Of a stretch of 64,000 bases of DNA, positions 5,566 to 39,031 are shown in pieces. Source of the stretch: Candidatus Micrarchaeota archaeon. Its GTDB lineage: Archaea > Micrarchaeota > Micrarchaeia > Anstonellales > JAHKLY01. The notes below the pieces were generated by a model. That model worked only from the letters and a program-made list of their open reading frames with translations. It did not search any database and was not told where the DNA came from. The number at the start of each line of letters is the position of its first letter. Position 1 is the first letter of the stretch. Where the stretch lies: positions 186,844-250,843 of the forward strand of contig JAHKLY010000001.1 in NCBI GenBank assembly GCA_020854825.1, given 5' to 3'. A program made the position numbers and the translations under genes.

Positions 5566-5647
5566 ATGCAAAATGAAAAGTTTGTACGTATTTATTTTAT
5601 AGGTGATCACAAACAATATGAAAATGGTTAAAAAACCAAATATGAGT

Positions 5648-9383: not shown

Positions 9384-9473
9384 ATTTAATCTTTCCTATT
9401 TTTATTTAAATATCAGCCAATACACTACCAATAAAATACCAACATATTTAAAACTTGTGTCAATATAGTATAT

Positions 9474-9650: not shown

Positions 9651-9660
9651 AGTAATCATT

Positions 9661-14901: not shown

Positions 14902-14911
14902 GGTGATATAA

Positions 14912-16522
14912 ATGGGAAATAGATCAAAATTAAAACCTAAAAAAATATCTAAAAAAGAGGAGATGACCGATAATCATAAAAAAAATGGATATTCAAAATT
15001 ATTAGGAATTAAAGGATTATCTGCTAAAGCAAAAATTTTTGATATTTTAGCAGGAGGAAAAATTGCATTTCTAAATACCCAAGAGGCAATGGAAAATGAT
15101 ATTTATCCTGCATACAGAGGAGTTTTGAAAAAAGGAAATAAAGAATTGGTAGTGATGTTTGATTTAACAGAAAATTTAGTTAAAAAAGGAGAAATTGGAT
15201 TATTTGCAGAAGTTGAAAAAGAATTAAAAGCAAAAGAAGGGGAGCAGATAATTATTAAACATTTAGAAAGACCTGCCTCTATTGATTATATTAGAAAAAA
15301 ATTAGATGGTAAATTTTTAGAAGATAAAGAAATGAATGTTATTATAAAAGATTTAATGGATAATCGGTTAAGTCAAGTTGAACTAGCGGCATTTGTAAGT
15401 GCGATGTATATTAGAGGAGTTAATTATGAGGAGACTGTTTCATTAGCAAATAGTATTGTAAATTCAGGAGATACATTAAATTTACACAAAAAACCAATTT
15501 TAGACAAACATTGTGTTGGGGGAGTTGCGGGAAATAGAACAACAATGATTGTTGTACCAATAATTGCAGCAGCAGGATGTTATATCCCAAAGTCTTCTTC
15601 AAGGGCGATAACAAGTGCAGCAGGAACAGCAGATACAATGGAAGTTTTAGCACCTGTGGATATTCAGATGGATGAATTGAAAAGAATAGTACTTAAAACA
15701 AAAGGGGCTATTGTTTGGGGAGGGGGAATGAATTTAGCAGCAGCTGACGACAAATTAATTAAAATACGGCATCCTTTGAGTTTGGATCCAAAAGGAGTAG
15801 TGCTTGCAAGTGTTTTATCTAAGAAAAAAGCAGTTAATGCCACTCACGTAATAATAGATATCCCCATTGGAAGAGGTGCAAAATTCCAAGACATGGATGT
15901 AGCAAAAGATTTGGCAAATGATTTTATAAATATAGGAAAAAAATTAGGTATGAAGATAGAAGCAGTAATAACTGATGGTAGTGATCCGATAGGGAATGGT
16001 ATTGGTCCTGCATTAGAATGTAAAGATGTATTAGAAGTATTAGAGGGAAAAGGACCTTATGATTTAAGAGAAAAATCTTGTGCATTGGCTGGAGGATTAT
16101 TAGAATTAGCAGGTAAAGCACCAAAAGGAAGAGGAATGGCAATTGCTGAGGATTTAATAAATAATGAAAAAGCATTAAAGAAGTTTAGGGAGATAATAGG
16201 AGAACAAGGAGGAAACCCAAGAATTAAAATAGATGAATTACCTATTGGTGAATATATATATCAAGTAAAAGCAGAAAAATCTGGAAGAATAGGGCATGTT
16301 GATAGTAAAATTTTATCAAAAATAGCAAGAGCTGCAGGTTCTCCAAAAGATATAGGTGCAGGCATAGTTTTACATCGTGAGGCAGGAGACAAAGTTAGAA
16401 AAGGAGAAGTGATATTAAGTGTTTATTCTGAAAGTGAAACAAAAATAGAATTTGCGATTAAAGCATTAGAAGCATTGAATCCAATAGAATTAGAGCAATA
16501 TCTACTTAAGAGTGTTAGATAG
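14912..16522 (+). CDS. deoA: AMP phosphorylase (thymidine-phosphorylase family with N-terminal extension)
   Basis: Length is about 536 aa with an N-terminal extra domain. Core motifs are DKHCVGGVAGNRTTMIVVPIIAAAG and SSRAITSAAGTADTMEVLA. Paired with the R15P isomerase gene. Confidence 0.85.
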   Translation: MGNRSKLKPKKISKKEEMTDNHKKNGYSKLLGIKGLSAKAKIFDILAGGKIAFLNTQEAMENDIYPAYRGVLKKGNKELVVMFDLTENLVKKGEIGLFAEVEKELKAKEGEQIIIKHLERPASIDYIRKKLDGKFLEDKEMNVIIKDLMDNRLSQVELAAFVSAMYIRGVNYEETVSLANSIVNSGDTLNLHKKPILDKHCVGGVAGNRTTMIVVPIIAAAGCYIPKSSSRAITSAAGTADTMEVLAPVDIQMDELKRIVLKTKGAIVWGGGMNLAAADDKLIKIRHPLSLDPKGVVLASVLSKKKAVNATHVIIDIPIGRGAKFQDMDVAKDLANDFINIGKKLGMKIEAVITDGSDPIGNGIGPALECKDVLEVLEGKGPYDLREKSCALAGGLLELAGKAPKGRGMAIAEDLINNEKALKKFREIIGEQGGNPRIKIDELPIGEYIYQVKAEKSGRIGHVDSKILSKIARAAGSPKDIGAGIVLHREAGDKVRKGEVILSVYSESETKIEFAIKALEALNPIELEQYLLKSVR

Positions 16523-17561: not shown

Positions 17562-20327
17562 TTAATTTGGGGTTAAATGGTTTATTATACTAAAAACATC
17601 AAAACCAACTCCAAAATCCCATTCTCCTAATTGGTTTAATCCAAGATTAATTGAAAGGGGCCCAGAACTAACCCCAAGATTCCCACTAAATGAACCTATT
17701 CTTTGTTTTATTCCTGTTTGTAGATTAATTCTAAATTTAAAAGAAGTAAAATTGTTACCAGTATTAAAATATAAATTAGTGTTTGCCACTAATGAATTAG
17801 TTCCAGTTGTTAAATCTAAATTACCATATGTATTTAAATTATGTGAGTGCATTAAAGATAAGTTATATTCATTACCTCCATACCAGGTTAATTTTAGTTC
17901 TGAATCATATGGCAAAGTAGTAGTTATATACGGGTCTAATCTAATTGCATACTCTTCCTCTACGTAATTAAATGTTGGACTAATTTCAATTCCAACTCCC
18001 AATTTAAGATCATCTTTGAAATTATATGATATATTTGTTTCTCCATAAACTCCTATTAATCTATTAGATATAGATTTGATATTTGAGAGTATTTTTTTAT
18101 CAGCAACATTAACATCTACTCTTAATGTTTTTGAACCTTTTAGAAGTTTTTCAGTGTCTAATACATTATAAGAACCAAATAATAAATTATTCATTTCAAA
18201 ATTTCCAATTCTTGGTGAAGATTCAATAAATATATATGGAGATATTCCAAAACTATGTTTAGAAATACTTAAATTTACTGCATTTATTGGATTATAATTT
18301 AAATCTAATTTATAAAAGGAAGTTCCAACATGTGCACTAAAATTTCTTCCGTAATTTAAATTTAAATTTAAAATTTCCCCAGTAACATTAATTCCTTTTG
18401 AAGAATAATCTACTGCACCTATTCCTCCTCTCCAAATACCTTTATCACCAAATAGTTCGTTCCTAGGAGCATATGTTTTAATTGAATATGCCATTGTTTG
18501 AGAAAATTCTCTTGCTATTTTATCAATTATTTCTTGTATATTTATATTTTCAAAAAAGCTTAACTTTTGTAATTTTGATATACTTTCTTTTCTTTCTAAT
18601 ATATCAAAAAGTAATTTAATTTCAGTTCCATCTGTTTTAATCCCATTTGGAAATAATTTATATAATTCTCCAAAAATTGCCTTTTCTTCACCCTCTTTTA
18701 AAACTGTCATAATTTTATCAAAATGAATTTCTCCTTTAAACGTTTTATTAGATAAAGAATTAATTATTAAATATTTATTTTTTAATATATCTGTCCATTC
18801 TAGTTCTGGTCCAAAATAGATATCAATACCTCCATTTTTTGAATATATATGTGTGCCTTTTCCTTCTTCACCCATTACTCTTTCTCCTTTGCCTGATTTT
18901 TGAATTGGTTTAGAGGATTCTATAAATAAATCTAAATTATTTATTTCAATCCCAAGGTAGGATATATTTAATATTCCATTTATGGTTATTTTTCTTAAAT
19001 TATCTTCTGTTTCTATGATTTCTCTACCTGCATTTTTTAAATTAATTGTAAATTCATTACCTTCTATTGGAAAAACAAGATCTAAATCTAAATTTCTTAT
19101 TTTTATATCTGGTGAATTGAATATATTTTTTATTTGAGTTAATGTATTTAATTCATTATTTTTTAATATTTCACTAATTAATGTTAATACTTCATCATTT
19201 TCTACTACATCCACATCAAAGCTTATCTTTCCCCTTCCACCATCACTTAAAATAATATTATTAGAAGATACTTTAATATACTCAGATATATCACTTCCTT
19301 CACCAGGAATTTCAGTAATAATTATATCTCCGAAAGATGTTTCGGATCTTAATTCTCCTTGTTCATCATAGAACCTATTCTGTTCCATATTAATATGGGC
19401 AGCAGCATTTGATATTTCAAAAGTTAAGTCTGAGTATATAATAAAAGTTCCAACCCCTTCAATTGTAAAAAATATTGTATCTCCTTCAGAAGGTTTAGGG
19501 ATAAAATGATTTATTGAATTATTATCATTATTAGTTATAGTTATTTTTAAACCCGTTTCCTCTTTTTTTATTTTTATTACATCTCCTTCTTTATGTAAAA
19601 TCAATTCATCATTACCTACATCAAAAATATGATTTTCTAAATTTAATCGCATTTCAATATTTAAAATACCTATCATTTCTTCCTCATTAAATAAACTATA
19701 CAGATCAAAAGTATTTAAAAAAGAATTACTTTCCTTAATTAAAGATGCCTCTTTATTTTGAGATATATATTGCCCCATAGATCTTTTTTCAACTGGTGTA
19801 TGGGTTTTATAATAGTCTCTTTTTGTATATGTTGATTCAGAAATGTTTATGTCTCTCTGTACTATAGTAGGGACATATTCTTCTAATTTAGAAGATTTTT
19901 GAAAAGTAGATATTCCCTGTTTCTTGTATTCCCCAAGTTCTTTTAATCCTTCATTTCCTTTTGAATATACAACTATAAATGCGTATTCTTTATCTTTAAT
20001 TGTTTCTAAACCTGCAACATAATCCAAAACACCATATTTTTTCATTGAATCATAAACACCCATAAATCTTGAATTAACATATGTTTTCATTCTTCTTTCC
20101 AATTCTTCTTTTAATTCAGGATGTTTTTCTAGATGTTCATTTGATAAATCTAAAAGTCCTGAATTTCCTCCACTTATCCATTCAAATCTTTCTCTATTAA
20201 TTATACTTCTATTCTCAATTGACCATTTTAACATAGTATCTTCAATCTCTTTTCTATTACCCATTATAGTATGTGCTGTGAGTTCTTCAAGTTCCTGATC
20301 TTTTAATTGTAACTGGGATATAAACAT
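17562..20327 (-). CDS. Large hypothetical protein (921 aa) with a beta-strand-rich C-terminal third
   Basis: Long uninterrupted ORF. No N-terminal signal peptide is visible. The last roughly 300 aa are G/N/S/Y/T-rich with alternating hydrophobic residues (for example LKLTWYGGNEYNLSLMHSHNL, FTSFKFRINLQTG). Confidence 0.7.
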   Translation of the reverse strand: MFISQLQLKDQELEELTAHTIMGNRKEIEDTMLKWSIENRSIINRERFEWISGGNSGLLDLSNEHLEKHPELKEELERRMKTYVNSRFMGVYDSMKKYGVLDYVAGLETIKDKEYAFIVVYSKGNEGLKELGEYKKQGISTFQKSSKLEEYVPTIVQRDINISESTYTKRDYYKTHTPVEKRSMGQYISQNKEASLIKESNSFLNTFDLYSLFNEEEMIGILNIEMRLNLENHIFDVGNDELILHKEGDVIKIKKEETGLKITITNNDNNSINHFIPKPSEGDTIFFTIEGVGTFIIYSDLTFEISNAAAHINMEQNRFYDEQGELRSETSFGDIIITEIPGEGSDISEYIKVSSNNIILSDGGRGKISFDVDVVENDEVLTLISEILKNNELNTLTQIKNIFNSPDIKIRNLDLDLVFPIEGNEFTINLKNAGREIIETEDNLRKITINGILNISYLGIEINNLDLFIESSKPIQKSGKGERVMGEEGKGTHIYSKNGGIDIYFGPELEWTDILKNKYLIINSLSNKTFKGEIHFDKIMTVLKEGEEKAIFGELYKLFPNGIKTDGTEIKLLFDILERKESISKLQKLSFFENINIQEIIDKIAREFSQTMAYSIKTYAPRNELFGDKGIWRGGIGAVDYSSKGINVTGEILNLNLNYGRNFSAHVGTSFYKLDLNYNPINAVNLSISKHSFGISPYIFIESSPRIGNFEMNNLLFGSYNVLDTEKLLKGSKTLRVDVNVADKKILSNIKSISNRLIGVYGETNISYNFKDDLKLGVGIEISPTFNYVEEEYAIRLDPYITTTLPYDSELKLTWYGGNEYNLSLMHSHNLNTYGNLDLTTGTNSLVANTNLYFNTGNNFTSFKFRINLQTGIKQRIGSFSGNLGVSSGPLSINLGLNQLGEWDFGVGFDVFSIINHLTPN

Positions 20328-24593: not shown

Positions 24594-26348
24594 TTAAAAT
24601 ATTTTCATAACAGTTAGATCAGTTATTTCTTTTAAAAGTTTTTTTTCATCTTCTGTTAAATCATCCGAAAAATTCGTTTTTATTATACGTGCTGTTTCTC
24701 TATTTATGTTAGTATATAAAATATCTTCTTCATTAAAGTCTTTCCCTGCAATTGGTTTTTCCATTGAAACAGCAACTTGCATTCCTTTTAAAGCTTCTTT
24801 AACACTTTCTCCTTTGTTTTGTATTGCTTTTATTTCTCCTAATAATTCTCCTTTAGAGTTTATTATTTTAAATCCTGTTTTTATTTTTCCTCCTAAAATT
24901 TCCACACCAAAAACCGCAGGTTTACTAACTCTGAAAATATGATTTCTTAAAATTTGTATTTTAGCTGGCCAAATTAATCCTTTCATTACTAGTTCTTTAT
25001 CTCTTTGTTTTTCTTTTTCAACCCAGTCTTTATATTTATCGATTAAATCATAAACTATATTACTTTCAAAAATAATTATTTCATCTTCTTTTGCATATTC
25101 TTTTGCATCTTCATTTATTGAAACATTAAATCCTAAAACAGCTCCTAAATATTTATCCATATTTTTCACAGCTTTTGCTCCTATTATATCAGTTTTTGTT
25201 ATTTTGCCTATTCCTGCTTGTTTTATATTTATGTTTTCTCCTTTTAACATTTTTATTAAAGCTTCTGTTGAACCTAAAGTATCAGTTTTAACTATTACTC
25301 CTGCACCTTCTGATTCAAATAAAACTTTTTTTAATTGTTCTTCAATTTCTTTTGTTTGTTTTTCTTCATTTTCAAGTATCAAGAAAGGAGATCCAGGTAT
25401 TGCATCTTCTAAATCTGGTGCAAATATTTTAAATCCAGATGCAGCGTGAACTTCGTCAACATAAATAAATTTGTCTTTAATATTTTGTCCTGGCAAAGTT
25501 GGTTTTAGAATTCCCCTTATTTTTGTTTTTTTAACTCCTTTTAATGTCCCAAATAAAAAATCATCTCCTTTTTTTACTGTTCCGTCGTATATTATTACAT
25601 CAATAGTTGTTCCTAATCCTTTTTCTTCTTTAACTTCTAAGATTGAGCCTTTACCTTTTCCTTTAACTTCAATGTTTAAGTTTTTTTCCAAGTATTTCTG
25701 GCTTATGCCTGAAATGTATAATAATAATTCTGCTAATCCTTCTCCTGTTTTGGCGCTCATGGGAACTATTAATATTTGTTTTGTCATTTCTTGTATTCTG
25801 TCAAATCTTTCAGTATCAAATCCATACTCATACATTTTTCCGACTACTTCATAAATTTTATTATCTAATAGTTCTTTTGTATATTCTGATTGCTGTTTTA
25901 AACTGTCCATAAAACAAAAACTAGTTTTAGAAGTCCATCCTTGTAATAAATCTATCTTATTTGCTGCTATTATAAAAGGAGTTTTATTTTGTTTTAATAT
26001 TTTTATACTTTCAATTGTTTGTGGCTGTATTCCTTGATTAATATCAATAACTAGGACAGCTAAATCCGCTAAACTTCCCCCACGTTCTCTTAAAGATGTA
26101 AAAGCTTCATGTCCTGGTGTGTCTATGAATAAAATTCCAGGTAATTTAATTTCTAAGTTCATTTTTTCTAATTGATTTTTACAAATAGTTAATAAAACTT
26201 CTTTTGGGACTTCACTTGCAGATGTATGTTGTGTGATCGCGCCAGCTTCTTTTGAAGCTACTACTGTATTTCTAATTTTATCCAAAATAGAAGTTTTTCC
26301 ATGATCTACATGACCCACGAATACACAGATACTTTGTCTTAATGCCAT
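24594..26348 (-). CDS. infB: Translation initiation factor aIF5B (IF-2)
   Basis: [28 protein letters not shown] and NKIDL. Length and domain order are typical of aIF5B. Confidence 0.95.
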   Translation of the reverse strand: MALRQSICVFVGHVDHGKTSILDKIRNTVVASKEAGAITQHTSASEVPKEVLLTICKNQLEKMNLEIKLPGILFIDTPGHEAFTSLRERGGSLADLAVLVIDINQGIQPQTIESIKILKQNKTPFIIAANKIDLLQGWTSKTSFCFMDSLKQQSEYTKELLDNKIYEVVGKMYEYGFDTERFDRIQEMTKQILIVPMSAKTGEGLAELLLYISGISQKYLEKNLNIEVKGKGKGSILEVKEEKGLGTTIDVIIYDGTVKKGDDFLFGTLKGVKKTKIRGILKPTLPGQNIKDKFIYVDEVHAASGFKIFAPDLEDAIPGSPFLILENEEKQTKEIEEQLKKVLFESEGAGVIVKTDTLGSTEALIKMLKGENINIKQAGIGKITKTDIIGAKAVKNMDKYLGAVLGFNVSINEDAKEYAKEDEIIIFESNIVYDLIDKYKDWVEKEKQRDKELVMKGLIWPAKIQILRNHIFRVSKPAVFGVEILGGKIKTGFKIINSKGELLGEIKAIQNKGESVKEALKGMQVAVSMEKPIAGKDFNEEDILYTNINRETARIIKTNFSDDLTEDEKKLLKEITDLTVMKIF

Positions 26349-26527: not shown

Positions 26528-27778
26528 TTAAATTATTGAATAGAAAATATGGAAAGGCATTTTTATTATATCTTCTTTTTTGATTATGTCTACTCCTTCA
26601 TATATGATTATTTTATATAATTTGGTATTTATTTCTTTAAATTGTTTAAATGTTTTATTTTTTGAACCAATTTCAATAAGATATTCGTCAAAAACAAAAT
26701 CAATAGTTTCATGATAGAATATTTTTTCAAAATTAGCTACAAATATATCTTCTCTCATAGTTCCTTTTAGTTCAGATTCTGGTATTGACATTTTTTTTGT
26801 ATATAATTCACGTATTATAGGTATTGTAAAATAATATTTCCATTGTTTTCTTGCTACTGTTTTTCCTTTTTTATAAGGATAAACACGTTTTATTATTTCA
26901 ACTTTTTCTAACAAATCTAACATTTCAGAGACAACACTTTTTGATATTCCTAAATCTTTTGCTATTGTTTCGTAACTGGTTTTTGTAGATACAGAAAGGA
27001 TCAAAATAAGTCGTTCAAATTTAGATAAAGTTGAAGTTTCAATATTTCTAATTTTTGCAATATCTGAAAAAATTGCTTTTTCTACAAGATCTGCTAATGT
27101 TGATTTATCATTTTCAAGAAGGTATGGAGAATTAGTTTGTATATATTCATTAATAAGTTTTAATATATCCCATTCTTTAAGTTTATTTTGGATATAAATA
27201 TCATAATGCATTGAGCTTCTTAATAGGTCTTCTGTATTTAATTTGAATTTATCCAGTAATATGTTATATTTTAAATATATAAATTCTCTAAAACTTAACA
27301 TAGGTATTGATATGTAGATTGCTCTTCGTGCTAATAATTTTTTTGATTCTAAAAGATTAATTGAAGAAGAGCCACTTATATAAAATAACATTTTAGGATA
27401 TTTATCATATGCTATTTTTATTTGTTCATCCCAATTAGAAATAGCATTTATTTCATCTAAAAAAATTACTGCATTTTGACCTATAATTCTTTCTGTTTCT
27501 TTTATCGCATCTAAGATATTTATTCTTAAAATAGATAGTTCTTCTCCGTGCAAATATATTCTATTATCTTCATTTGTTTCAAGATATTTTTGGAACATTA
27601 AAGTTGTTTTTCCACTTCCTCTCATACCATATAAAATAATCATTCTTCCCTTGAGTTCATTATATATAAACCGTTTTTTATATTCTTTGTATGATTGGCT
27701 TGTTTTTTCATATTCTAATTTAGAATTTCTAATGAATTGTGTAATATTTGGTTTTTCCATATAATTAGTTTGATTCAT
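26528..27778 (-). CDS. AAA+ ATPase of the AAA_14/DUF4143 type (second paralogue)
   Basis: Walker A is LYGMRGSGKTTL and Walker B is IFLDEINAISNWDEQ. A wHTH-like stretch SYETIAKDLGISKSVVSEMLDLLEKVEIIKRV is present. Start trimmed to ATG 27778 (or 27760) because the track N-terminus is translated from the upstream repeats. Confidence 0.75.
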   Translation of the reverse strand: MNQTNYMEKPNITQFIRNSKLEYEKTSQSYKEYKKRFIYNELKGRMIILYGMRGSGKTTLMFQKYLETNEDNRIYLHGEELSILRINILDAIKETERIIGQNAVIFLDEINAISNWDEQIKIAYDKYPKMLFYISGSSSINLLESKKLLARRAIYISIPMLSFREFIYLKYNILLDKFKLNTEDLLRSSMHYDIYIQNKLKEWDILKLINEYIQTNSPYLLENDKSTLADLVEKAIFSDIAKIRNIETSTLSKFERLILILSVSTKTSYETIAKDLGISKSVVSEMLDLLEKVEIIKRVYPYKKGKTVARKQWKYYFTIPIIRELYTKKMSIPESELKGTMREDIFVANFEKIFYHETIDFVFDEYLIEIGSKNKTFKQFKEINTKLYKIIIYEGVDIIKKEDIIKMPFHIFYSII

Positions 27779-27793
27779 TAGGTATTTAAATGT

Positions 27794-27845
27794 TTGTTCT
27801 TTTGAACGAACAAAAGTAGTTGTTTTTGTTCTTTTGAACGAACAA
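27794..27845. repeat. 52-bp unit containing two 20-bp palindromic boxes TTGTTCTTTTGAACGAACAA (copy 1)
   Basis: Boxes at 27794-27813 and 27826-27845. The whole unit repeats at 27876-27927 with 1 mismatch. Lies directly upstream of the ATPase gene. Confidence 0.85.
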
Positions 27846-27875
27846 TTAATCAAAAAATAGATAAAATAAACTTAT

Positions 27876-28314: not shown

Positions 28315-29619
28315 TCACTCATAATAAACTATTCTTTTGCCAATTCCCCATTTTTTAATTGCAGCGCCTAATTCTTTGTGTTCTTTTGCATATTCTAAAA
28401 TATCTTGTTTTTTCATAAATGAATCTATTGCTTGGCGCATTGCTTTAGCGCCTGATCTAACTCCATTTGGGTGGCCTGCAACTCCTCCGCCTGCTTGTAA
28501 AAATAGGTCGGTTCCGCCCCTGTTTATTGTTTCAGGTATAACTCCTGGATATAATCCACCTGAAGAAACAGGCATTACATATTTAATGTTATGCCAATTT
28601 TGTTCTAAAACATGTTCTTTATCATTTTCATCTATTCTTTTTTTAACTAATGCGTCTCGTATGTTCAATTCTTCTTTATATTCACTTCTCATTTTTCCCA
28701 TCCCAAATGTTCCAATATGTAATGAATCAGAGCCGATTAATCTGGCTATTTTTGCAACAGCAAGCATTGTCATCCCATTTCTTGGATTATGTGTAAACAT
28801 CCCATGTCCTGCTCTATGTGCATGAACTATTAGATTAGGGTGATGATTTCTCAAAGTTTCAAATCCTGCCCATCCGCATGTTAAAATATCTATCATAGTT
28901 ATTCTTCCTCCATGATCATTTATAAATTGTGCCCTTCTTAGCATTTCATTAGATTCAGCAGACACATTGCAAACATATAATTTTTTCTCTCCTGTTTCAC
29001 TTTCTACTTTATCTCTCATTTCTAAAGTTCTTATTACTCTTTCTTCAAATTTATTAAATTTCATATCTGTTAAGTTTTCATCATCTTTTACTAAATCTAA
29101 TCCTCCACTCCATGCTTCATATGCATATTGTGCGTGTCCTTTAGCAGTTCTTCCAACTTTTGGTTTTACAATTGTACCACAAAAAGGTCTTTTTTTGATT
29201 TTAGCAATTTTTCTTATACCTTCAATTCCATGTTCTGGTCCTTTAAATGATTTTATGATATCTTTTGGAAATGAAATATCTAATAATCTTAAGTTTTTCA
29301 ATTCTTTCATTCCAAAAATATTTCCTGCTATTGCACTCATTATTTGTGACATATTTCCAGTTTCAAATAATCCAGAAGGATAAGCAATTTTTATTGTTTT
29401 ATCTTTTGTATTAATATAAAATATATGTGGAGTTATTTTTTTTCTTAATGCTGGTGAAATACCCCCAACATCTGTCCATGTTCCGATTGATGATTCAGCA
29501 GTTATGTGTTCTGCTGCTTCTTTCAAAGTTAATTGTTTTTTTAATTTCCCTGGCTCAACATAAAATTTGCATATTAAATCATTTTCTTTTGGTTTGTATT
29601 TTAAATTTGTAAAGCCCAT
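28315..29619 (-). CDS. rbcL: Ribulose-1,5-bisphosphate carboxylase, form III large subunit
   Basis: GTWTDV, CGTIVKPKVGRTAKGHAQYAYEAWSGGLDLVKDDENL (with the carbamylated-Lys KDDE motif), HAHRAGHG and SSGG. No small-subunit gene is nearby. ATG 29619 follows AGGTGA. Confidence 0.9.
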   Translation of the reverse strand: MGFTNLKYKPKENDLICKFYVEPGKLKKQLTLKEAAEHITAESSIGTWTDVGGISPALRKKITPHIFYINTKDKTIKIAYPSGLFETGNMSQIMSAIAGNIFGMKELKNLRLLDISFPKDIIKSFKGPEHGIEGIRKIAKIKKRPFCGTIVKPKVGRTAKGHAQYAYEAWSGGLDLVKDDENLTDMKFNKFEERVIRTLEMRDKVESETGEKKLYVCNVSAESNEMLRRAQFINDHGGRITMIDILTCGWAGFETLRNHHPNLIVHAHRAGHGMFTHNPRNGMTMLAVAKIARLIGSDSLHIGTFGMGKMRSEYKEELNIRDALVKKRIDENDKEHVLEQNWHNIKYVMPVSSGGLYPGVIPETINRGGTDLFLQAGGGVAGHPNGVRSGAKAMRQAIDSFMKKQDILEYAKEHKELGAAIKKWGIGKRIVYYE

Positions 29620-29711
29620 AAATATCACCTTAGTAATATATTTTATTAAGCTTTTTATTAGTTTGTGTTTGTTTTAAATAGAAATATAAATATATTACTT
29701 AAAATTAAATT

Positions 29712-31034
29712 GTGGAAATTACTTTTTATGGTGGAGCGCAGGAAGTTGGAAGAAGTTGTATTAATGTTCTTTCTAAAACAAAACAAATAATGCTTGACTG
29801 CGGCATAAAATTAGGGGATCCGATTGAATATCCAATAATTCCTAAAAAAGATTTTAAACGCATTAAATATATTGTTCCTACTCATACACATCTAGACCAT
29901 ATAGGATATTTACCTCACATTATACAAAGGTCAAAAAGTGCTAAGATTTATGCTACAAAACCAACAAGGGATCTAATGCAGTTATTATTATCTGATTATC
30001 AAAGACTACAAGAAAAAAAAGAGTTTTCAACAAAAGATGTTGAAAAAGTTTTAGAAAAAACACAACAAGTAGAATATAAAGAAAAAATAAAATCAAAAGG
30101 AATGTTTTCCTTCATTTTATATAATTCTGGACATATTTTGGGGGGAGCAATGGTTAAAGTAGAGGATAAATGTGATTTATTATATACTGGTGATTTAAAT
30201 TTAAGAGAAACAAAAATAACTGAAGGTGCTCAACTAGGAATTAAAGCAAAAAATTTAATTTTAGAATCAACTTATGGGGGAAAAACTGATAAATTACCTT
30301 CTTTAAAAATAGCATCTCAAAATTTAATTGAATCAATTAAAGAAACTTTAATTGCAGGAGGGTATGTTTTAATTCCAACATTTGCTGTTGGGAGAGGACA
30401 AAACATAATGATGGTTATTGAAAGTTATATGAGATCTGGAGCTTTACCTAAGGTGCCTATTTACACAGATGGCATGGTGAATAGGGCAAATAGGATTTAT
30501 AGGCATAATGTTATTTATGCAAAAGAAGAAATTAAAATGAGAATTTTAATGAGTGATGAAGATCCATTCAAAAGTCCTTTTTATAAAATACCACAAACAA
30601 GAGATAGAAGTGATGTTTTATCAGAACCTTGTATTATTTTATCAACATCTGGTATGCTAACTGGTGGCCCAGTTTTAACTTATTTACAAAAATTAATTGA
30701 AGATCCTAAAAATAAATTGATTATTGTTGGTTATCAAGTAGACGGTTCATTAGGTAGAAAATTGATAGATGGGGAAAAATATGTTGAGTTAGGACATGGA
30801 GAAGATAAAAAAGAATATGAAGTTAGAATGAAAGTTGAAACTGTTCCATTTTCAGGACATTCTGATCATGATGAATTAGTTAAATTCACTAAATCTATTA
30901 AAGGATTAAAAAAAGTATTTTTAATGCATGGTGAACCAAGAAAAATTGATGAGTTAGCGCAGGATATTCAAAAACATCTTAAACAAGTTGAAATAATAAT
31001 TCCAAAAAATGAAGAATCATTTAAAATTGATTAA
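29712..31034 (+). CDS. Beta-CASP family metallo-beta-lactamase RNase (aCPSF2/RNase J-like, no KH domains)
   Basis: GGAQEVGRSC and HTHLDHIGYLP (the HxHxDH motif). Later beta-CASP motifs include SGHSDHDEL and LMHGEP. Confidence 0.8.
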   Translation: MEITFYGGAQEVGRSCINVLSKTKQIMLDCGIKLGDPIEYPIIPKKDFKRIKYIVPTHTHLDHIGYLPHIIQRSKSAKIYATKPTRDLMQLLLSDYQRLQEKKEFSTKDVEKVLEKTQQVEYKEKIKSKGMFSFILYNSGHILGGAMVKVEDKCDLLYTGDLNLRETKITEGAQLGIKAKNLILESTYGGKTDKLPSLKIASQNLIESIKETLIAGGYVLIPTFAVGRGQNIMMVIESYMRSGALPKVPIYTDGMVNRANRIYRHNVIYAKEEIKMRILMSDEDPFKSPFYKIPQTRDRSDVLSEPCIILSTSGMLTGGPVLTYLQKLIEDPKNKLIIVGYQVDGSLGRKLIDGEKYVELGHGEDKKEYEVRMKVETVPFSGHSDHDELVKFTKSIKGLKKVFLMHGEPRKIDELAQDIQKHLKQVEIIIPKNEESFKID

Positions 31035-32430
31035 ATAAGATATCACAAAAGATCCATTCAGCACTTAATCCTAAACTTGAATTTCCTTCTCCTGCTGAAC
31101 CTAATATTCCAAATTTTAAATGTTCATTTCCAGCAGAAATTGATCCAAAGTATCTATTGTCTCTTGTTTGTAAAACTAAATCTACCTCAAATTTATCTTT
31201 ATTTCCAATAGTTAAATCAGTTCTAATAACAGGACTTAAAACATAATATGTATATTTGGGATTTTTTTCTATTTTTCCATTTGCTCCGATTTGGATTGTT
31301 AATATTTCTGGAAATTGTAAAAATACTGTTGCCCCTCCATGGATTTCTTCCCAGTTTGTAATAGTTATGAATTTGCTATCTGCATACATAGTTCCTAATC
31401 CCAGAAAGTATTTTCCATTTCCAAAATTGGCATTTTGAAAAACTAATTTAAAACCTAATTCTCCTCTTGATCTTGGTTTTATTTTTATTTTTTCAGTATC
31501 TTCTTTATAGTTTATTGTTTCGTCTCTATCTCTGTATTTTAAATTTTGATCTAATCCTGCAATAGCTGTAAAATATGTTTGCAAAGGAGTTATTTCAAAT
31601 TGAAATTCACCTCTTAAATTTGTACATATAGTTGTTCCTATAAATTCATTTATAATATCTTTAAATATTATATTTTCAGAAATTGGTTTGTAAATTGTTA
31701 TTCCTGCATCTAAAGTTGCTTTTTCAAAAACTATTCCTTTATATTTTGGTTTTGAACCATCTGGACATAATGCTTCTGGATTTATTGTTCCTCTTAGAAA
31801 ATATGAATTTGTTGGTTGCATAATAATGTCTGATTTTTCCTCGTTTATTGTTATAATTAAAGAAGAAACTAAAGGTTCTATCCCAAGATTATGGATTCTT
31901 TCACCAGTAACTGGATCTCTTCCAAATATTTCTAAAAATGCTTGTCTCATGTTTATTTCATTATTACTTAATTTATTTATTATTTGGTTAGCTTGATTAA
32001 CATAGATATTATCTATTCTAGATAATAAAGGAATAATTCCTTTTTGTATTTCTAATATAAAATTATTTTTGATATTTAAATTATTTGCAAAAAAAACATA
32101 ATTGGCTGAATAACTTGCCATATTTTTTGAAGAATTTAGCAAATTATCTATTAAGGGCCCTACAAAACTATTCAAATCAGAACCAACCCCAACAAATTCA
32201 ATACCTTCTGTTAATTCTAATATGTTTTCTTTATTTTGTCCTCTGTCATTCAATTCAATATCTAATTTTTTAATATCTACTTGAGAACTTGAAGTATTTG
32301 AATAATACGAATTATTTATATATTGTGCATTAGTAGTTTTGGGCATTATTCCTTTTAATAATGCAAAACCCATTCCAGTATACAACATAATGTTTCCAAT
32401 AATCTTTATAGTTTTATTTTTAAGTTTCAT
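31021..32430 (-). CDS. Secreted hypothetical protein (469 aa) consisting essentially of the FGRDP/beta-rich module
   Basis: Signal-like N-terminus (IIGNIMLYTGMGFALLKGIMPKTTNAQ). FLEIFGRDPVTGERIH lies at aa 165-180. The C-terminal roughly 250 aa have amphipathic beta-strand periodicity and end ...WIFCDILFNQF. Confidence 0.75.
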   Translation of the reverse strand: MKLKNKTIKIIGNIMLYTGMGFALLKGIMPKTTNAQYINNSYYSNTSSSQVDIKKLDIELNDRGQNKENILELTEGIEFVGVGSDLNSFVGPLIDNLLNSSKNMASYSANYVFFANNLNIKNNFILEIQKGIIPLLSRIDNIYVNQANQIINKLSNNEINMRQAFLEIFGRDPVTGERIHNLGIEPLVSSLIITINEEKSDIIMQPTNSYFLRGTINPEALCPDGSKPKYKGIVFEKATLDAGITIYKPISENIIFKDIINEFIGTTICTNLRGEFQFEITPLQTYFTAIAGLDQNLKYRDRDETINYKEDTEKIKIKPRSRGELGFKLVFQNANFGNGKYFLGLGTMYADSKFITITNWEEIHGGATVFLQFPEILTIQIGANGKIEKNPKYTYYVLSPVIRTDLTIGNKDKFEVDLVLQTRDNRYFGSISAGNEHLKFGILGSAGEGNSSLGLSAEWIFCDILFNQF

Positions 32431-32500
32431 GTATTATTTAGTGTCTTTTTGAGTATATAAATGTTTTGATAAAATTAAAAAAGGAAAAAACAGTTTAATT

Positions 32501-34978
32501 TTACAAATAATCTGGGCAATACCATACGAACCCACAGGTTACTGTACATTCGGCTTCTTCATACATAGGAATTCCTGTTGGATCAGTCCAATTAGCAAAT
32601 ATGGTGTAAGTACTTCGGTATGAATCTGCACCACAGTTCCATTTTATTCGTTTAATATAATTAGGAGGAATTCTTGTTGATTCACTAATAGGGAAATAAT
32701 TAGGAATTACACTCCCCTCCCAATTTACTCCACCTACATTTATAATTATCTCATCACCATTATATAAAACTCCCCATTCTCCCTCTGCACTTCCTCCTTC
32801 TTCAATTTCTAAATCTGTGCAAAAGACATCTATGTCTACGGGTTCTGGAGGGACACATTCTAATAGTATATTTACACAATTATCATCTTCTCTTGATTCC
32901 ATTACATTAAATCTTGAGTCAGCACAGATAGTAAGAATATGGTCTTCTTCTTCCTCTATTAAATATGAATATTCATGTGTTACACTTGAAAAAGGAGCAG
33001 TTAATGCAGTTGCAAAATCTATACATGTTCCCCAAGTATCTCCAAAAGGTCTTCCTGTATTCGGGGCTCTATGTGGTGCATGTAAAGGTAGATTTGGATT
33101 ATTAGTATTAGGTAATGGAGGAACTGAATAATCTGTATTATCTAATTCATACCCATCTACTCTTCTTAATACAACATTTGTCCAGCTTGAATTTTCAGAA
33201 CAAATTCCATTTGAATAAGTGCTAATGTTAATCGTCTGTGTTTCATTTACAATACAAGGACCCCTAAATAAAATTAATGGCCCCACATGTATTTCTTCTA
33301 CGTCAGCCCTAACTCGTAAGTTAGTTTGAGACTCACAAACAATAGTTAAATTTCCACAATTATTATTTTCGTTTATTTCCTTTACTTTATTGTAAACATC
33401 AGCACACACAGTAAAGGTAATATTCATATTAACTCCTACTGGACAAGTAAATTCATTAGTATTAATTTGACTTTGTCTGGGATTTAAATTAGGAACTTCA
33501 TAATAAGCAGGCATAAAATAATGAGGTACATCTGATCTTAATATAGTGGTGGATGTATTTTCAGTGTTTAATGAACCAATATTTGAAGTATTTATGTTAA
33601 TTAAAACAAGGTCTCTTTCTCTTGCATATATAATCCCATTGCCTAAAGGACTCGTTAAACTTGCAATTAAATCAGGTCCTTGAATAATAGGAACTTCAAC
33701 TTCCCATTCATTTATCGGGTCATTACAATAAGGGGAAGTAGTATCAAAATATAATATGAAATTTATTTCGTCTCCAGGAGTATATGTTAAAGAAGCTTCT
33801 AATGTTCCTTCAACTATAAATAAAAATTCACCTGGTCCTGAACCTGGAGGAGTAATTTCTATATTATAAGGAGTATCTGGAGTAAAAATAAAGTCATGAT
33901 TATTTGGTATTATGTTTGTAATATTAAATGGCATAGTAGTTCTATTTAAGAATAAATGAATTATTACATTTTGTGTTTCTCCTGGATTTATGACAATTGG
34001 AGAGCTTCCACTTCCATCAGTCACATACACATTATTAATTTCAATTTGTGGATCTGCAACTATAAATTGATAATTTAATGTTTCACTAGGATTAAACCTG
34101 AACAAATTATCTATACAATTTGTTGATCCTTGACTAGGAAGACAATACTTTGTTATAACTGAGTATCTACTATTTGTACATAATTGTCCATCTGCATATC
34201 TTTTAGAAAAATATAAACATTTAACTTCATCAAGATTAATATCAATAACATGTGTACCAATTTCAGAAACTGTAAATGAATTTGAGTAATCTTCTATTGG
34301 GCCATTATAAAACAAAGCCCCATCAATATAAACTTTAAGATTTCCTTGGCAAATTAAACTTACATTTACGCCAGAATTAGGATAATTTATTGTTTCATCT
34401 TGTTTTGGATAAAATCTTACATTTGTTAATTGATTTAAAAAATCATTAAAAGAATTATAATAACAGCCGCTTGAAGTGGGATATACATCTGCAAAACATC
34501 CTTCACTAGTAGAATAATATCTGTTAATTCCTTCTTGATCAAAAACAATTTTTAAATTATTTGTGGTTCCTGGGGGAGCACAACAGCTACCTGGGGCAGA
34601 AGGATTACAACCCATTCCTTGTATTCCATTTAAATCTATATGTGCAGACATTCCTAAATACATTTGATTTGTTTGGATATTTTCATTTAGATTAACATCT
34701 ATATTAACTTCACCCGCACATATAACTGCATTAATAGGTAAATCACTAGGTTCATCACCAGAAAGAACAGTAGAACTAGTAGATATTATTTCGCTCATAT
34801 ATACTTGAAAAGGATTTGTTTGAATATATGTGTGAGGTCCTGATACTGGAGGAGGGCCCGGGTTTCTAATTTGATATAATTTTATTTGAGGAAAATTAAA
34901 ATTTTCAGATTCAACCGCAAAAATATTGCTAATTAAAACTAATGTTAAAATTATCACAACTGTTTTATTTACTTTCAT
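32501..34978 (-). CDS. Secreted cysteine-rich protein (825 aa) with CARDB-like repeats
   Basis: Signal peptide is MKVNKTVVIILTLVLISNIFAVES. There are many Cys residues. Repeat endings VKEINENNNCGNLTIVCE and ESREDDNCVNILLECVP look like the E.NE.NN ends of CARDB/Ig-like adhesion domains. Confidence 0.7.
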   Translation of the reverse strand: MKVNKTVVIILTLVLISNIFAVESENFNFPQIKLYQIRNPGPPPVSGPHTYIQTNPFQVYMSEIISTSSTVLSGDEPSDLPINAVICAGEVNIDVNLNENIQTNQMYLGMSAHIDLNGIQGMGCNPSAPGSCCAPPGTTNNLKIVFDQEGINRYYSTSEGCFADVYPTSSGCYYNSFNDFLNQLTNVRFYPKQDETINYPNSGVNVSLICQGNLKVYIDGALFYNGPIEDYSNSFTVSEIGTHVIDINLDEVKCLYFSKRYADGQLCTNSRYSVITKYCLPSQGSTNCIDNLFRFNPSETLNYQFIVADPQIEINNVYVTDGSGSSPIVINPGETQNVIIHLFLNRTTMPFNITNIIPNNHDFIFTPDTPYNIEITPPGSGPGEFLFIVEGTLEASLTYTPGDEINFILYFDTTSPYCNDPINEWEVEVPIIQGPDLIASLTSPLGNGIIYARERDLVLININTSNIGSLNTENTSTTILRSDVPHYFMPAYYEVPNLNPRQSQINTNEFTCPVGVNMNITFTVCADVYNKVKEINENNNCGNLTIVCESQTNLRVRADVEEIHVGPLILFRGPCIVNETQTINISTYSNGICSENSSWTNVVLRRVDGYELDNTDYSVPPLPNTNNPNLPLHAPHRAPNTGRPFGDTWGTCIDFATALTAPFSSVTHEYSYLIEEEEDHILTICADSRFNVMESREDDNCVNILLECVPPEPVDIDVFCTDLEIEEGGSAEGEWGVLYNGDEIIINVGGVNWEGSVIPNYFPISESTRIPPNYIKRIKWNCGADSYRSTYTIFANWTDPTGIPMYEEAECTVTCGFVWYCPDYL

Positions 34979-34984
34979 ATATAT

Positions 34985-37900
34985 CTACCTCAATATTTCT
35001 ATTCCTATTCCCCATTGGTTTATTGGGTCTTCTTCTTTTATTATGGAATTTTTAAATTCTCCTCTTAATCTAATTTCGAAGGATTCTCTTCCTATATTTA
35101 TTTTTCTTGTTATACTTACTCCTAATGTGCCAGTTGCACCCAATCCCAGTATATGTCTTTGATTAATCTCTTCTCTATTATAAACAGCTAATGCACTTGC
35201 ATCTGCCCCAATTCCCCAGTTTTTACCTATTGGAACATCAATATTTAAATTCATATTTGGAGACATAGTTAAATATCCACCACCTGCAAGTACTCCTTCA
35301 GGAGTTGTATATTCTAAATGTGTTCCTATGCCAATTTTAATATTATTATTATTTTTTATTGGATTAATTAAAATCATTCCCCCTCCATATAATCTTTCAA
35401 TATTTTTTTCATCGTAGAATTTTACTCCTCCATATATTGCAGTTTTATCTAAAAGTTTTCCAAAAATGGATTCAGATTTAGTTAAGGGTTGGACAACAGC
35501 ACCTATTCCATATCTTATTTTTTTTTCTATTTCTTTTTCATTATTTAATATAGATTCTAAATCTAGATCTGATAATATTTCTTCTCTTAGTGCTTTTAAT
35601 GTAAGTATAGTCTTTAAAGGAACTATATGAAATCCCATTTCTGCTATTGCTCTTGTAGTTAATGCTTTTTCTGAAAAATTAGTTATTTCTTTTATATCAT
35701 CTCTAGTCACAATAATTTCTCCACTTTCTCCGAGTATTTCTGCTGCATATTCAGTAGTTTCAAAACCCGCTTTAAAACTATAAAAATTTATTCCGTTTTC
35801 AGAATATAGTGATTTTATAGTTTTTGTAGAAAACATTGCACCATATGTGTATGACGGGACCACACGAATATTAACTCTAGATCTAGCTTTTCCAACCATT
35901 GCACCAGAAATAATTTCAAATCTTCCTTCACTTACTGGATCTCCGGAGATTGGGTCTCTACCAAATAATAGTTTATATGCTTCATCAATTGTAATTCTGT
36001 TTGCAGTTAAATCAGTAAGTACTTCATCTAACATACCTTCATAATCTGTGTAAGGGTCTGATCTATCTATATCCTTAATCAAAGGTCGTAGATACTCTTC
36101 TATATTCGCAATAAAATTAGTTTTTAAATTATTGTAGGCAATTGTTCCTCCGAATTGATCATATGTAGATAAGTTAGCAACAATTGTAATGTTTTCTAAT
36201 CCTTCTTTTAAATAATTCGCAGTTTCTTGATAAGAATTTAGATCAGCTCCCGTTTCTAATTGAGGAACAGTAAAAGCAACTAAAACGTTTTGTATCTCTG
36301 AAGGCATGTTAACTTCCGGCATTTCTGTTATTTTTTCTCTTGAACCTATTATTATTTTTCCAACTAATGTAGGATTATCTGCAGGTTCCATTAATCTGAT
36401 ATACTCATGTTCAAATGGAAGTGCATATATTTTATATTCAGTTGATGATCCTTCTTCAGGAACTTCTCCTATATTTCTTGCATCTAATGTGTAATCAATT
36501 TTTCCATCTTCTCCTGCTTTTGTTATTTCACAAGAAACTATTTTCCCTTCAGAATTTACTACATAAAGATAAATCCATGAATTTTTTGCTTCTTCGTCTT
36601 TAATTTTATTTTCATTTAATTTATTATTTTTATCTGTACTAAAAAATGTTCCTCCATAAAATATTTGAGTATTAAATTGTAGATTAAATGAATTATCTGT
36701 CAAATCATCTATAATTAATGTTTGTCGCCCATCTCTTGTTTGTCTTCTTTGGAATAATAATTGAACTGTTACTAAATTTTCTTCTTTTAAAGTTGTTAAA
36801 TCTCCAGTTATAACTCCTTCACGTTTGTCTAATATAACATTTGATTTACCAACAGATAATTGTAGTTTTGTAACTCCTTGTGTTAATTTATCAAAATCAA
36901 ATTCAGGGACATAAAACCCATTTGCCCCAAGAGATTCTAAAGAGTTCTTTAATTTTTGTCCTTCTGGTTTTGTCCAAAAATCCCATTCTTTCCAAGTGCA
37001 GATTAAGGAGTAATTTAATCCTAATCTTCCGCCCGCAGCAGTATACATTAAGAAGAACATTCTCTCATCTTTCATATTTTCAAGTGAATTCCTAATATCT
37101 CTTTTTGTTATATTTGGATTTAATTGTTTATTTATGTCTTCAGAAGATCTGACTATATATATCCAAGCTAAATCTGTCATTTTATCTAATATTTCTCTTG
37201 ATTCTTCTTTTCCTTCTAAAACAAGATTCCTCATTTTTTCCATTGTCCATCCTTTTGAATCAGCAAATTTTTCTAGTTCTCCAAGAAGTTTTTCTGCATT
37301 TATATATGCATTAATGTGGTTTTTGATAGGGTATTTTATAAAATCTCCCATTTTTCCTTCTTTTGTCATTATTTCATTAAATTCAGTGGAGCTTATTTTG
37401 TGGTCTCCATATCTATTACTAACACCATAGGTTAAACCACACAATATGAATGCCAATTTATACTGTTCTTGTAGATAATTAGGTATTGAAGAATAAGAAA
37501 CTATATTTGGATTATTATAATAAGATTGGATAGCAGTTTTTAGATTATTATCCATGAAACTCAATTTATAAATATCTTGTAATGTTAAGTTTTCTTTATT
37601 TGCTAGTACATACAATTCTTGTAATCTTGAATTTGATTCACCAAATGTATTTTTTAATTCCAATGCAATTAAAATATTTGGAAGATTGATAAAACCTTTG
37701 GTAACTATATCTATCATTTCAGTTGTGGGGTTTCTCCAATCTACATCTGTTGTTATTCTTAAATCTTCTAAAGATTCGACGATTAATGGATGTAACGTAT
37801 TCATACCTATCATCCATCGTCTAAAATTACTATCCTTTGTAAATTGGTTAAAAAATAAATCTTTATTTTCATTGTTTATTCTTAAGTCTAAAGTTAATTC

Positions 37901-38890
37901 TCCTTGTTCATTTTTGGTGATTTCATATTTGATCATATTTGTACCATAGTATATATCTGCATATCTTATTAAATCAAAAACAATTCCATTTCTAAATTGT
38001 TTAAGATAATCTTCAAAATCAAATGTTGTTTGATTTGGATTACCAATATTTACGAGATATATCTTATCTTCAATTGAAATCTCGGTTTTATTTATTTGTT
38101 CATACGTTTTTCCTTGTATATTTTCATAAGAACTTCCAATAATTCCAGCAGTTTTTGAAGCATTAAATGATACATTAGATAATGTTCCATCTCCAAAATC
38201 ATACCCACTTATAATTGCATCTAAGCTGACTTTACCCTCTAGTGCTGAATTTAAAATATCAATAATAGGCATATTTGTAACTAAACTTGGTTCTGTTTTA
38301 CTAGGAACAATTCCAGTTAATTTTTCGTGGGTTACAAAACCCCTATCAAAAAATTGATCATATAATTTATCAATCTGTATTATATTATCTTTTTGTTGTG
38401 CATCAAATTCTTTTTTTTTACCTTGGATAATTATAGAGGTATGGTAGGTTCTCAGAAATTCTTCTTGTATTTTATTTGTTTTGATAGTTCTTGTTTCTTT
38501 ATGGATTGCATTAAATCTACTTCCAGGATTTATTTGTGTTTGTAAAAGAGTGTATACAATTCTCTGTGCTTCAATTTCTAATGATTCAGAAGTATTTTCT
38601 AAGGCAGTTTTAATATCTTTTTTTAATGCGTCATTATTTCTAATAAAATTTTGGTTTTCAAAAAAATTCATCAAAATATCTATTTTTGATTCAATTGTTG
38701 AATGCTGATTTCCCATACCATAATCACCTTCATAATTATTATAATTATCTCTCTTTAAAAAAGTATTTAATAGTTCCTTTTCAATTAAAGGTTGGGCAAA
38801 ACTCAATGTGCTTTGAAAAAGCATAGCTCCAGCTGCTAGTTTTATAGTAAAATTTCTAAATTTTTGATTTTTAAAAAAGTGCTTTTTCAT
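34985..38890 (-). CDS. Giant secreted hypothetical protein (1301 aa) with a C-terminal FGRDP/beta-rich module
   Basis: Signal-like IKLAAGAMLFQSTLSFAQP. There is a roughly 890-aa N-terminal region of unrecognised type. YKLLFGRDPISGDPVSEG lies at aa 972-989. The G/N/I-rich beta tail ends ...NQWGIGIEILR. Confidence 0.8.
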   Translation of the reverse strand: MKKHFFKNQKFRNFTIKLAAGAMLFQSTLSFAQPLIEKELLNTFLKRDNYNNYEGDYGMGNQHSTIESKIDILMNFFENQNFIRNNDALKKDIKTALENTSESLEIEAQRIVYTLLQTQINPGSRFNAIHKETRTIKTNKIQEEFLRTYHTSIIIQGKKKEFDAQQKDNIIQIDKLYDQFFDRGFVTHEKLTGIVPSKTEPSLVTNMPIIDILNSALEGKVSLDAIISGYDFGDGTLSNVSFNASKTAGIIGSSYENIQGKTYEQINKTEISIEDKIYLVNIGNPNQTTFDFEDYLKQFRNGIVFDLIRYADIYYGTNMIKYEITKNEQGELTLDLRINNENKDLFFNQFTKDSNFRRWMIGMNTLHPLIVESLEDLRITTDVDWRNPTTEMIDIVTKGFINLPNILIALELKNTFGESNSRLQELYVLANKENLTLQDIYKLSFMDNNLKTAIQSYYNNPNIVSYSSIPNYLQEQYKLAFILCGLTYGVSNRYGDHKISSTEFNEIMTKEGKMGDFIKYPIKNHINAYINAEKLLGELEKFADSKGWTMEKMRNLVLEGKEESREILDKMTDLAWIYIVRSSEDINKQLNPNITKRDIRNSLENMKDERMFFLMYTAAGGRLGLNYSLICTWKEWDFWTKPEGQKLKNSLESLGANGFYVPEFDFDKLTQGVTKLQLSVGKSNVILDKREGVITGDLTTLKEENLVTVQLLFQRRQTRDGRQTLIIDDLTDNSFNLQFNTQIFYGGTFFSTDKNNKLNENKIKDEEAKNSWIYLYVVNSEGKIVSCEITKAGEDGKIDYTLDARNIGEVPEEGSSTEYKIYALPFEHEYIRLMEPADNPTLVGKIIIGSREKITEMPEVNMPSEIQNVLVAFTVPQLETGADLNSYQETANYLKEGLENITIVANLSTYDQFGGTIAYNNLKTNFIANIEEYLRPLIKDIDRSDPYTDYEGMLDEVLTDLTANRITIDEAYKLLFGRDPISGDPVSEGRFEIISGAMVGKARSRVNIRVVPSYTYGAMFSTKTIKSLYSENGINFYSFKAGFETTEYAAEILGESGEIIVTRDDIKEITNFSEKALTTRAIAEMGFHIVPLKTILTLKALREEILSDLDLESILNNEKEIEKKIRYGIGAVVQPLTKSESIFGKLLDKTAIYGGVKFYDEKNIERLYGGGMILINPIKNNNNIKIGIGTHLEYTTPEGVLAGGGYLTMSPNMNLNIDVPIGKNWGIGADASALAVYNREEINQRHILGLGATGTLGVSITRKINIGRESFEIRLRGEFKNSIIKEEDPINQWGIGIEILR

Positions 38891-39031
38891 ACTTAATATT
38901 TGTTAAGAAGTATATAAAAATGTTTATGAATTTGTAATTATATTCATTTGTAATTGGTTTAAATTTTAAACTAACCTTTATAAAGTTTATTTTAGTAGAT
39001 TGTTTATAAAACTTATTAAAATAGAGGTGAT

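Follow-up and report, generated by a model that had tools for sequence, protein, structure and literature searches.

Type Va autotransporters such as EspP and Ag43 are built of a signal, a large passenger, a helical linker and a C-terminal barrel of about 300 amino acids (aa), and they occur in Gram-negative bacteria. Membrane beta-barrels are considered a hallmark of the bacterial outer membrane and of organelles of bacterial descent, and to our knowledge archaea are not known to make them. Here we describe three neighbouring genes of a Candidatus Micrarchaeota archaeon (NCBI GenBank assembly GCA_020854825.1), which lie in a stretch of 64,000 nucleotides of contig JAHKLY010000001.1 (positions 186,844 to 250,843 of the forward strand; hereafter the window). 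The products of the first and third gene, P1 and P3, end in a common module that is predicted to consist of a helical linker and a porin-like beta-barrel, and the product of the second gene, P2, carries CARDB repeats. We consider that this trio may be a lineage-restricted, autotransporter-like set of cell-envelope genes in an archaeon of Micrarchaeota (DPANN) type, and we give this explanation as a whole a probability slightly below one half (about 45%).

As modelled, P1 shows the same order of parts as the type Va autotransporters. It differs from them in that the Pfam family PF03797 is unmatched and 13 strands are predicted instead of 12, and in that the linker is a predicted four-helix unit, whereas autotransporters have one pore-spanning helix. 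Moreover, P1 is encoded by an archaeon without a known outer membrane or beta-barrel assembly machinery (BAM), and it is always accompanied by the gene for a passenger-less predicted barrel and by a CARDB gene. The porins OmpG, CymA and KdgM/NanC (12-14 strands) have long antiparallel strands and short turns in common with the modelled module and provide its best structural matches; however, sequence identity stays at noise level (9-12%), porin families are unmatched and these porins have no counterpart of the helical N-terminal extension. The likeness of P1 and P3 to autotransporters and porins is thus one of architecture and predicted fold only, and not of sequence membership.

Surface layers (S-layers) offer another comparison. 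Like SlaA and SlaB of the Sulfolobales, the trio combines a large secreted acidic protein with a smaller partner of about 470 aa, a pairing that in the Sulfolobales belongs to the cell envelope, and its strong TATA-like boxes suggest a high expression, as in S-layer systems. In contrast, S_layer_N and S_layer_C (PF05123/PF05124) are unmatched, P3 has neither the C-terminal transmembrane helix nor the coiled coil of SlaB, and S-layer systems are made of Ig-like domains whereas a barrel is predicted for the module. The S-layer protein of Micrarchaeum harzensis is defined by PF05123 (bioRxiv 10.1101/2021.04.28.441871), a domain that is absent from the trio. Finally, CARDB surface proteins of archaea and bacteria share CARDB repeats and a signal peptide with P2, which differs in being fixed between two genes of the barrel module.

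Three genes and a shared C-terminal module

The genes of P1 (34985..38890, 1301 aa), P2 (32501..34978, 825 aa) and P3 (31021..32430, 469 aa) all lie on the minus strand and are separated by 6 bp (P1-P2) and 70 bp (P2-P3). A preliminary description of this DNA had given the same sizes, strand and gaps, and they agree exactly with the listing of open reading frames (ORFs). What that description had missed is the homology of P1 with P3: residues 880-1301 of P1 match residues 82-469 of P3 (about 420 aa; BLASTP E 8e-13, 25% identity), and in a multiple alignment the similarity reaches both C-termini. Since the homology covers nearly all of P3, this protein can be described as the C-terminal module of P1 with a signal-like segment in front; indeed, beyond a signal-like N-terminus and about 50 residues, P3 has nothing but the module (aa ~51-469).

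Each locus holds exactly two genes that are matched by a profile of the module, and no further gene of the window is matched. In the window lineage these two copies have a protein identity of about 24%, and the three clades of the module are roughly equidistant (18-26% identity). In a more distant lineage, which is described below, the two copies have 80% DNA identity over 1185 bp (contig L003; gene 1 at 1919..5695, gene 3 at 8285..10255), and the helical part is 85-95% identical in protein. This likeness of the copies suggests gene conversion, recent re-duplication or selection for compatibility. The constant presence of two module copies, which are alike in one lineage, would be expected of cooperating parts or of proteins that have a common partner.

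In P1 four parts can be distinguished, all of them given here on the minus strand. The signal-like N-terminus (aa 1-33, 38792..38890) was recognized by inspection, reads MKKHFFKNQKFRNFTIKLAAGAMLFQSTLSFA before a following QP and is conserved in the close orthologues P0005 and P0006. It is followed by an N-terminal "passenger" region of about 830 aa (aa 34-859, 36314..38791), delimited by alignment with the distant orthologue, whose invariant motifs include GSSYEN, FRRW, LSFMD, GGRLGLxYS and GFYVP and for which no Pfam or PDB sequence match was obtained. The module itself starts with a helical linker (aa 882-976, 35963..36247) of four helices predicted by AlphaFold2 (block-mean predicted local distance difference test, pLDDT, 74-92). 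The invariant motif A-[YF]-x-x-[IL]-F-[GN]-x-D-P-x-x-G at the end of this linker marks the junction of the helical and the beta-rich parts. The last part is the predicted beta-barrel (aa 1005-1300, 34991..35878), with 13 strands of 11-22 residues, as judged by AlphaFold2 and Foldseek.

P2 has a signal peptide, 27 Cys, CARDB repeats, an isoelectric point (pI) of 4.25 and no membrane anchor. Its best CARDB match (aa 453-541, 33356..33622, minus strand; Pfam PF07705, E 4.2e-11) scores 43.4 bits against a gathering threshold of 22.7, and the distant P2 orthologue reaches 56.6 bits. No family matches were found for the N-terminal region of about 300 aa and for the Cys-rich C-terminus. The preliminary description had named CARDB in the middle protein as the sole known domain of the trio and had otherwise spoken of an unrecognised family. 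Both statements hold: in Pfam, NCBIfam, PHROGs and the PDB sequences only CARDB in P2 was matched (NCBIfam was searched with the window proteins, Pfam and PHROGs also with the distant orthologues), and for the module there was no match at all.

The signal-like N-termini that had been noticed in all three proteins are also seen on inspection: each has a K-rich n-region and a hydrophobic core, and small residues precede the likely cleavage site, which lies between SFA and Q in P1, IFA and V in P2, and TNA and Q in P3. A strict hydrophobicity cut is passed by the N-terminus of P2 only. A C-terminal transmembrane anchor is found in none of the three proteins, nor is there any hydrophobic segment beyond the N-termini.

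Predicted fold of the module

Residues 860-1301 of P1 were modelled with AlphaFold2 from an alignment of seven of the eight module sequences, all but that of gene 3 of L003; they represent three clades and include the distant orthologue. The best model has a pLDDT of 71.6 and a predicted template modelling score (pTM) of 0.57, and its 13 strands would form a closed up-and-down barrel, in which the connections are mostly of 2-10 residues and the pLDDT is mostly 55-88 (45-73 in the C-terminal half of the barrel). In a Foldseek search of this model against the PDB all of the top 50 matches were bacterial outer-membrane barrels. The best of them was OmpG (2iwv_A; E 4e-4, probability 1.00, template modelling (TM) score 0.54 on the target, over 308 columns); the beta-domain of the EspP autotransporter (8qn4_F) was aligned with a TM score of 0.50 and a root-mean-square deviation of 6.0, and ScrY, OpcA, KdgM, CymA, TamA, FhaC, BamA and LptD were among the other neighbours. 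The viral library of Foldseek gave weak matches only, all of them to phage-borne barrels of outer-membrane protein (OMP) type. The strands can also be projected on the family alignment, where most of them have one charge-free face rich in L, I, V, F, Y or W and another that is polar, a pattern kept in all three clades.

The density of amphipathic 10-residue strands was also scored with a home-made index, for which four regions of 50 kb each from E. coli K-12 served as calibration; it measures an OMP-like density of strands and not a barrel as such. Eight OMP and autotransporter positives of E. coli scored 6-9, and the 119 negatives without multiple transmembrane helices scored 5 or less. P1 reaches 9 and P3 reaches 8, as compared with 5 for P2 and, with the exception of one orphan described below, 4 or less for the other ORFs of the window.

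The preliminary description had reported beta-strands and an abundance of G, N, Y and T in the tails of P1 and P3, as is indeed the case, and had called these tails barrel-like. The latter view is supported by the best model of the P1 module and its outer-membrane neighbours, but not by the remaining four models, nor by the model of P3, which are poor. The terminal aromatic residue that had been taken as a hallmark of outer-membrane barrels is present in P3 (...LFNQF), but it is unconserved, given that the two closest P3 orthologues end in ...LFN; P1 ends in ...EILR, and the distant orthologues of both module proteins end in ...KLEIEF. No beta-sandwich or beta-helix fold and no match to an adhesin or S-layer family was obtained, and the trio is present in relatives. 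On balance, we lean towards a module that folds as a closed barrel.

Apart from the trio, one more ORF of the window has a high strand density, namely orf921 (17562..20327, minus strand), a 921-aa orphan without family match or signal peptide. Its C-terminal part of about 280 aa contains alternating strands rich in G, N, Y and S, and its index of 9 is the joint highest in the window. A search with the module profile found no homology, and orf921 was rejected as a carrier of the P1/P3 module; it may be another barrel-tailed protein.

Conservation, distribution and expression signals

Close orthologues of the trio are found in two other assemblies (L001, NCBI contig NPIE01002073.1; L002, a Logan contig of SRR13427962), where they are syntenic and 63-77% identical (66-67% for P1). 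In all three genomes the trio is flanked upstream by the gene for a membrane protein of 228 aa; downstream lie RuBisCO and the gene for a beta-CASP nuclease, which is convergent. The ratio of nonsynonymous to synonymous substitution rates (dN/dS) of the trio is 0.25-0.43 as against 0.09-0.12 for the adjacent RuBisCO, three to four times as high, which indicates fast-evolving proteins under purifying selection. Judged by their syntenic orthologues and by dN/dS, the three ORFs are real genes. The G+C content at the trio is about 27-30% and does not differ from that of the window at large; the locus is thus no compositional island.

The family is very rare. Word-indexed searches of 5.8 billion clusters returned only the proteins of the window itself and those of the two close genomes. 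A HMMER scan with the module profile (filter-only, 1.84 billion representatives at 50% identity) gave four proteins at E<=1e-3: two proteins of the window, the repeat protein P0007 and the 1258-aa protein P0008 (E 1.3e-6). P0008 aligns end to end with P1 at 25% identity; its 90% cluster includes MCD6279382.1, which is labelled "Candidatus Micrarchaeota archaeon", and a partial copy of the same type is found in the GTDB representative metagenome-assembled genome AUK049 (contig L007). Scans of metagenome and genome contigs yielded only L006, which is identical with L001, and this partial Micrarchaeota contig L007, and a scan of the IMG/VR viral contigs yielded no relative of the family. P0007 (1628 aa) matches positions 54-117 of the profile, in the linker part, ten times (E 1.5e-8); these matches are probably compositional, reflecting repeats rich in N, E and I, and we do not count P0007 as a relative. 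Its C-terminus is tail-fibre-like.

The P0008 type of gene belongs to a distant trio on the JGI contigs L003-L005, in which it is followed by the gene for an 823-aa CARDB protein and then by that for a 656-aa module protein with a signal. The CARDB protein is homologous to P2 over the full length (E 1e-31), including the Cys pattern at the terminus. The neighbourhood is another one, with AAA_14 upstream and S6e, RIO1 and CDC48 downstream. The same order of three genes at an identity of only ~20-25% and in a different neighbourhood argues for a functional unit. The trio thus occurs, as the preliminary description had proposed to check, in related genomes, namely in the two close ones and in a distant lineage labelled Micrarchaeota. 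In the literature on archaeal beta-barrels and on the source accessions we found no description of the P1/P3 module family; a possible OMP relative in Altiarchaeales is mentioned in passing (PMC12228718). By the searches made here, the module family is a new one of very narrow distribution, restricted to genomes labelled Micrarchaeota.

The regions between the genes carry plausible expression signals, all on the minus strand. A Shine-Dalgarno-like GAGGT (34987..34991) is located inside the end of P1, 8-10 nucleotides upstream of the P2 start; it is the same in L001 and L002, and GGGGT stands in its place in L003. T-runs just past the P2 stop (32470..32493) are a candidate archaeal terminator, and T-runs are found also in L001, L002 and L003. 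A TATA-like box, CATTTATATAC, lies 23-33 nucleotides upstream of the P3 start (32453..32463) and is conserved in L001 and L002, and another, CATTTTTATATAC, lies 20-32 nucleotides upstream of the P1 start (38910..38922) and is identical in both. The pattern of these boxes occurs three times in the window as against 0.32 expected occurrences; the third is a copy of CATTTATATAC at 5251..5261 (minus strand), which is intergenic and has no obvious gene downstream on that strand. Because of the 6-bp gap with the conserved GAGGT, the T-runs after P2 and the separate box of P3, we consider that P1 and P2 are probably co-transcribed and P3 is probably promoted separately, under like promoters. The suggestion of an operon of three genes therefore probably holds for P1 with P2 only, since P3 has its own conserved TATA-like box. 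Leaderless first genes together with internal genes led by a Shine-Dalgarno sequence are the typical pattern of archaea, and the signals of the trio fit it.

The surrounding genes had been called archaeal, and aIF5B, aEF1A, form III RuBisCO and Kae1 bear this out; FtsZ is also encoded in the window. The form III RuBisCO is accompanied by an AMP phosphorylase-like protein and a ribose 1,5-bisphosphate isomerase of the IF-2B family, which together make a complete AMP-salvage set (13975..16522, plus strand, and 28315..29628, minus strand), as is typical of DPANN. The aIF5B of L001 (16030..19392, 1120 aa) carries an intein with a LAGLIDADG endonuclease, and the copy of the window (24594..26348, 584 aa) is intein-free. 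A GGDEF (diguanylate cyclase) domain protein is encoded at 61640..62701 on the plus strand (Pfam E 2.1e-24); signalling by cyclic di-GMP is, as far as we know, unusual in archaea. Genes for AAA_14/DUF4143 ATPases are found in the window at 3881..5152 (plus strand) and 26528..27853 (minus strand) and in L003 at 325..1686 (minus strand), directly upstream of the distant trio, which may be a coincidence.

Alternative explanations and possible role

In the arrangement that we favour, P1 and P3 would be exported through Sec, and their module would be a four-helix linker followed by a porin-like beta-barrel of 12-14 strands. P1, with its signal, its passenger of about 830 aa, its helical linker and its C-terminal barrel, would display the N-terminal region at the cell surface. 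P3, a copy without a passenger, would act as anchor or channel, probably in assembly with P1. P2, a Cys-rich and anchorless protein with CARDB (Ig-like) repeats whose translation would be coupled to that of P1, might serve as an attached adhesin or scaffold. Since the four-helix unit is too small to fill a barrel of 13-14 strands, the lumen is probably filled with water, and the hydrophobic face is probably the outer one, a geometry which would require that this face is buried in lipid or in a protein interface. The hydrophobic outer face of the barrel would then be placed in a lipid membrane, most plausibly that of a partner or host cell, or else, should this archaeal lineage possess one, in an outer layer of its own envelope. 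The signal-like N-termini, the 27 Cys and the CARDB repeats of P2, the acidic pI and the high dN/dS fit exposed surface proteins. The trio as a whole may serve in host contact.

Several observations weigh against an autotransporter-like gene set with membrane barrels. The other four models of the P1 module have a pLDDT of 58.7, 43.8, 43.3 and 35.5, and the alignment behind them, with seven sequences, is shallow; for P3 (six sequences) AlphaFold2 reached a pLDDT of 37, with just the helical part moderately confident and with a Foldseek result that is noise. The strand-density index is also high for Ig-like and beta-helix passengers (yeeJ, yfaL) and hence unspecific to barrels. The eight module sequences matched no OMP or autotransporter family in Pfam or NCBIfam, even at E<=10, the closest P3 orthologues lack the terminal aromatic residue, and in the distant P1 orthologue a signal peptide is missing and the reading frame has no extension upstream. 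We know of no Omp85/BAM-type insertase in archaea, and among the ORFs scanned in the window there is no Omp85 or POTRA protein. Moreover, the cultivated Micrarchaeon has a single membrane and an S-layer (bioRxiv 10.1101/2021.04.28.441871); earlier work is cited in that study as having read the envelopes of ARMAN archaea as double membranes. A PQQ-type beta-propeller (2184..3785, plus strand) matches Pfam PQQ_2, the description of which names BamB; this is a generic propeller and no evidence for BAM. That the module forms genuine transmembrane beta-barrels of Micrarchaeota, which have no bacterial sequence relatives, are secreted without BAM and insert in the host membrane or in a second outer membrane of the archaeon, appears to us possible but rather doubtful. 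In the host membrane such a barrel would serve as an anchor or as a conduit for the uptake of metabolites or lipids.

As an alternative, the module might be a non-membrane beta-rich structural domain, for example a lattice or sheath component of a surface layer or a helix-capped soluble barrel, and the porin-like closure would then be an artefact of AlphaFold caused by the shallow alignment. Four of the five models with a pLDDT below 60, the low values in the C-terminal half of the barrel and the unusable P3 model speak for it, and the amphipathic alternation is equally expected in sandwiches, as the index values of the Ig-like and beta-helix passengers illustrate. S-layer proteins are the usual building material of archaeal envelopes, and P1 is S-layer-like in its bulk properties (148 kDa, pI 5.2, few Cys). 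However, S_layer_N/C and all other families are unmatched, strands of 11-22 residues with turns of 2-5 residues are atypical of sandwiches, and none of the 50 top structural neighbours is a sandwich, a solenoid or an S-layer protein. We therefore regard this explanation as somewhat unlikely. A beta-sheet that binds or transfers lipids by means of a hydrophobic groove (AsmA/TamB/Lpt-like), and by which a lipid-auxotrophic symbiont would draw host lipids, could explain why one face of the strands is conserved as hydrophobic and why LptD and TamA are among the structural neighbours, and DPANN archaea generally are without lipid synthesis. Yet LptD and TamA align through their closed barrels and not through beta-taco or jellyroll domains, there is no AsmA, TamB or Lpt profile match and no apparent repeating five-strand unit, and this explanation seems improbable.

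The trio might also be cargo of a virus or mobile element, encoding structural or host-recognition proteins. It evolves fast, archaeal viruses and mobile elements often encode CARDB domains and large orphan proteins, and AAA_14 ATPases are found nearby in both lineages. Against this, the base composition equals that of the flanks, the housekeeping genes that flank the trio are the same in three genomes, PHROGs and the IMG/VR contigs hold no match or relative, and neither an integrase nor repeat boundaries were seen, so that we consider a mobile origin very improbable. A recent acquisition from bacteria is likewise unlikely, since the trio agrees with its surroundings in base composition, is syntenic and has no bacterial relatives in the searches made here.

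If the module does form genuine membrane barrels, the trio would represent the first archaeal porin- or autotransporter-like system, and the membrane beta-barrel would either have arisen independently or have diverged extremely deeply. It would also bear on the existence of diderm DPANN lineages, on the insertion of barrels without BAM and on the physical coupling of symbiont and host. If the barrel is a modelling artefact, P1 and P3 would still make up a family of surface proteins that is new and very narrow. The trio provides concrete and clonable candidates for work on the attachment of DPANN symbionts to their hosts and on the way in which these symbionts obtain material from them.

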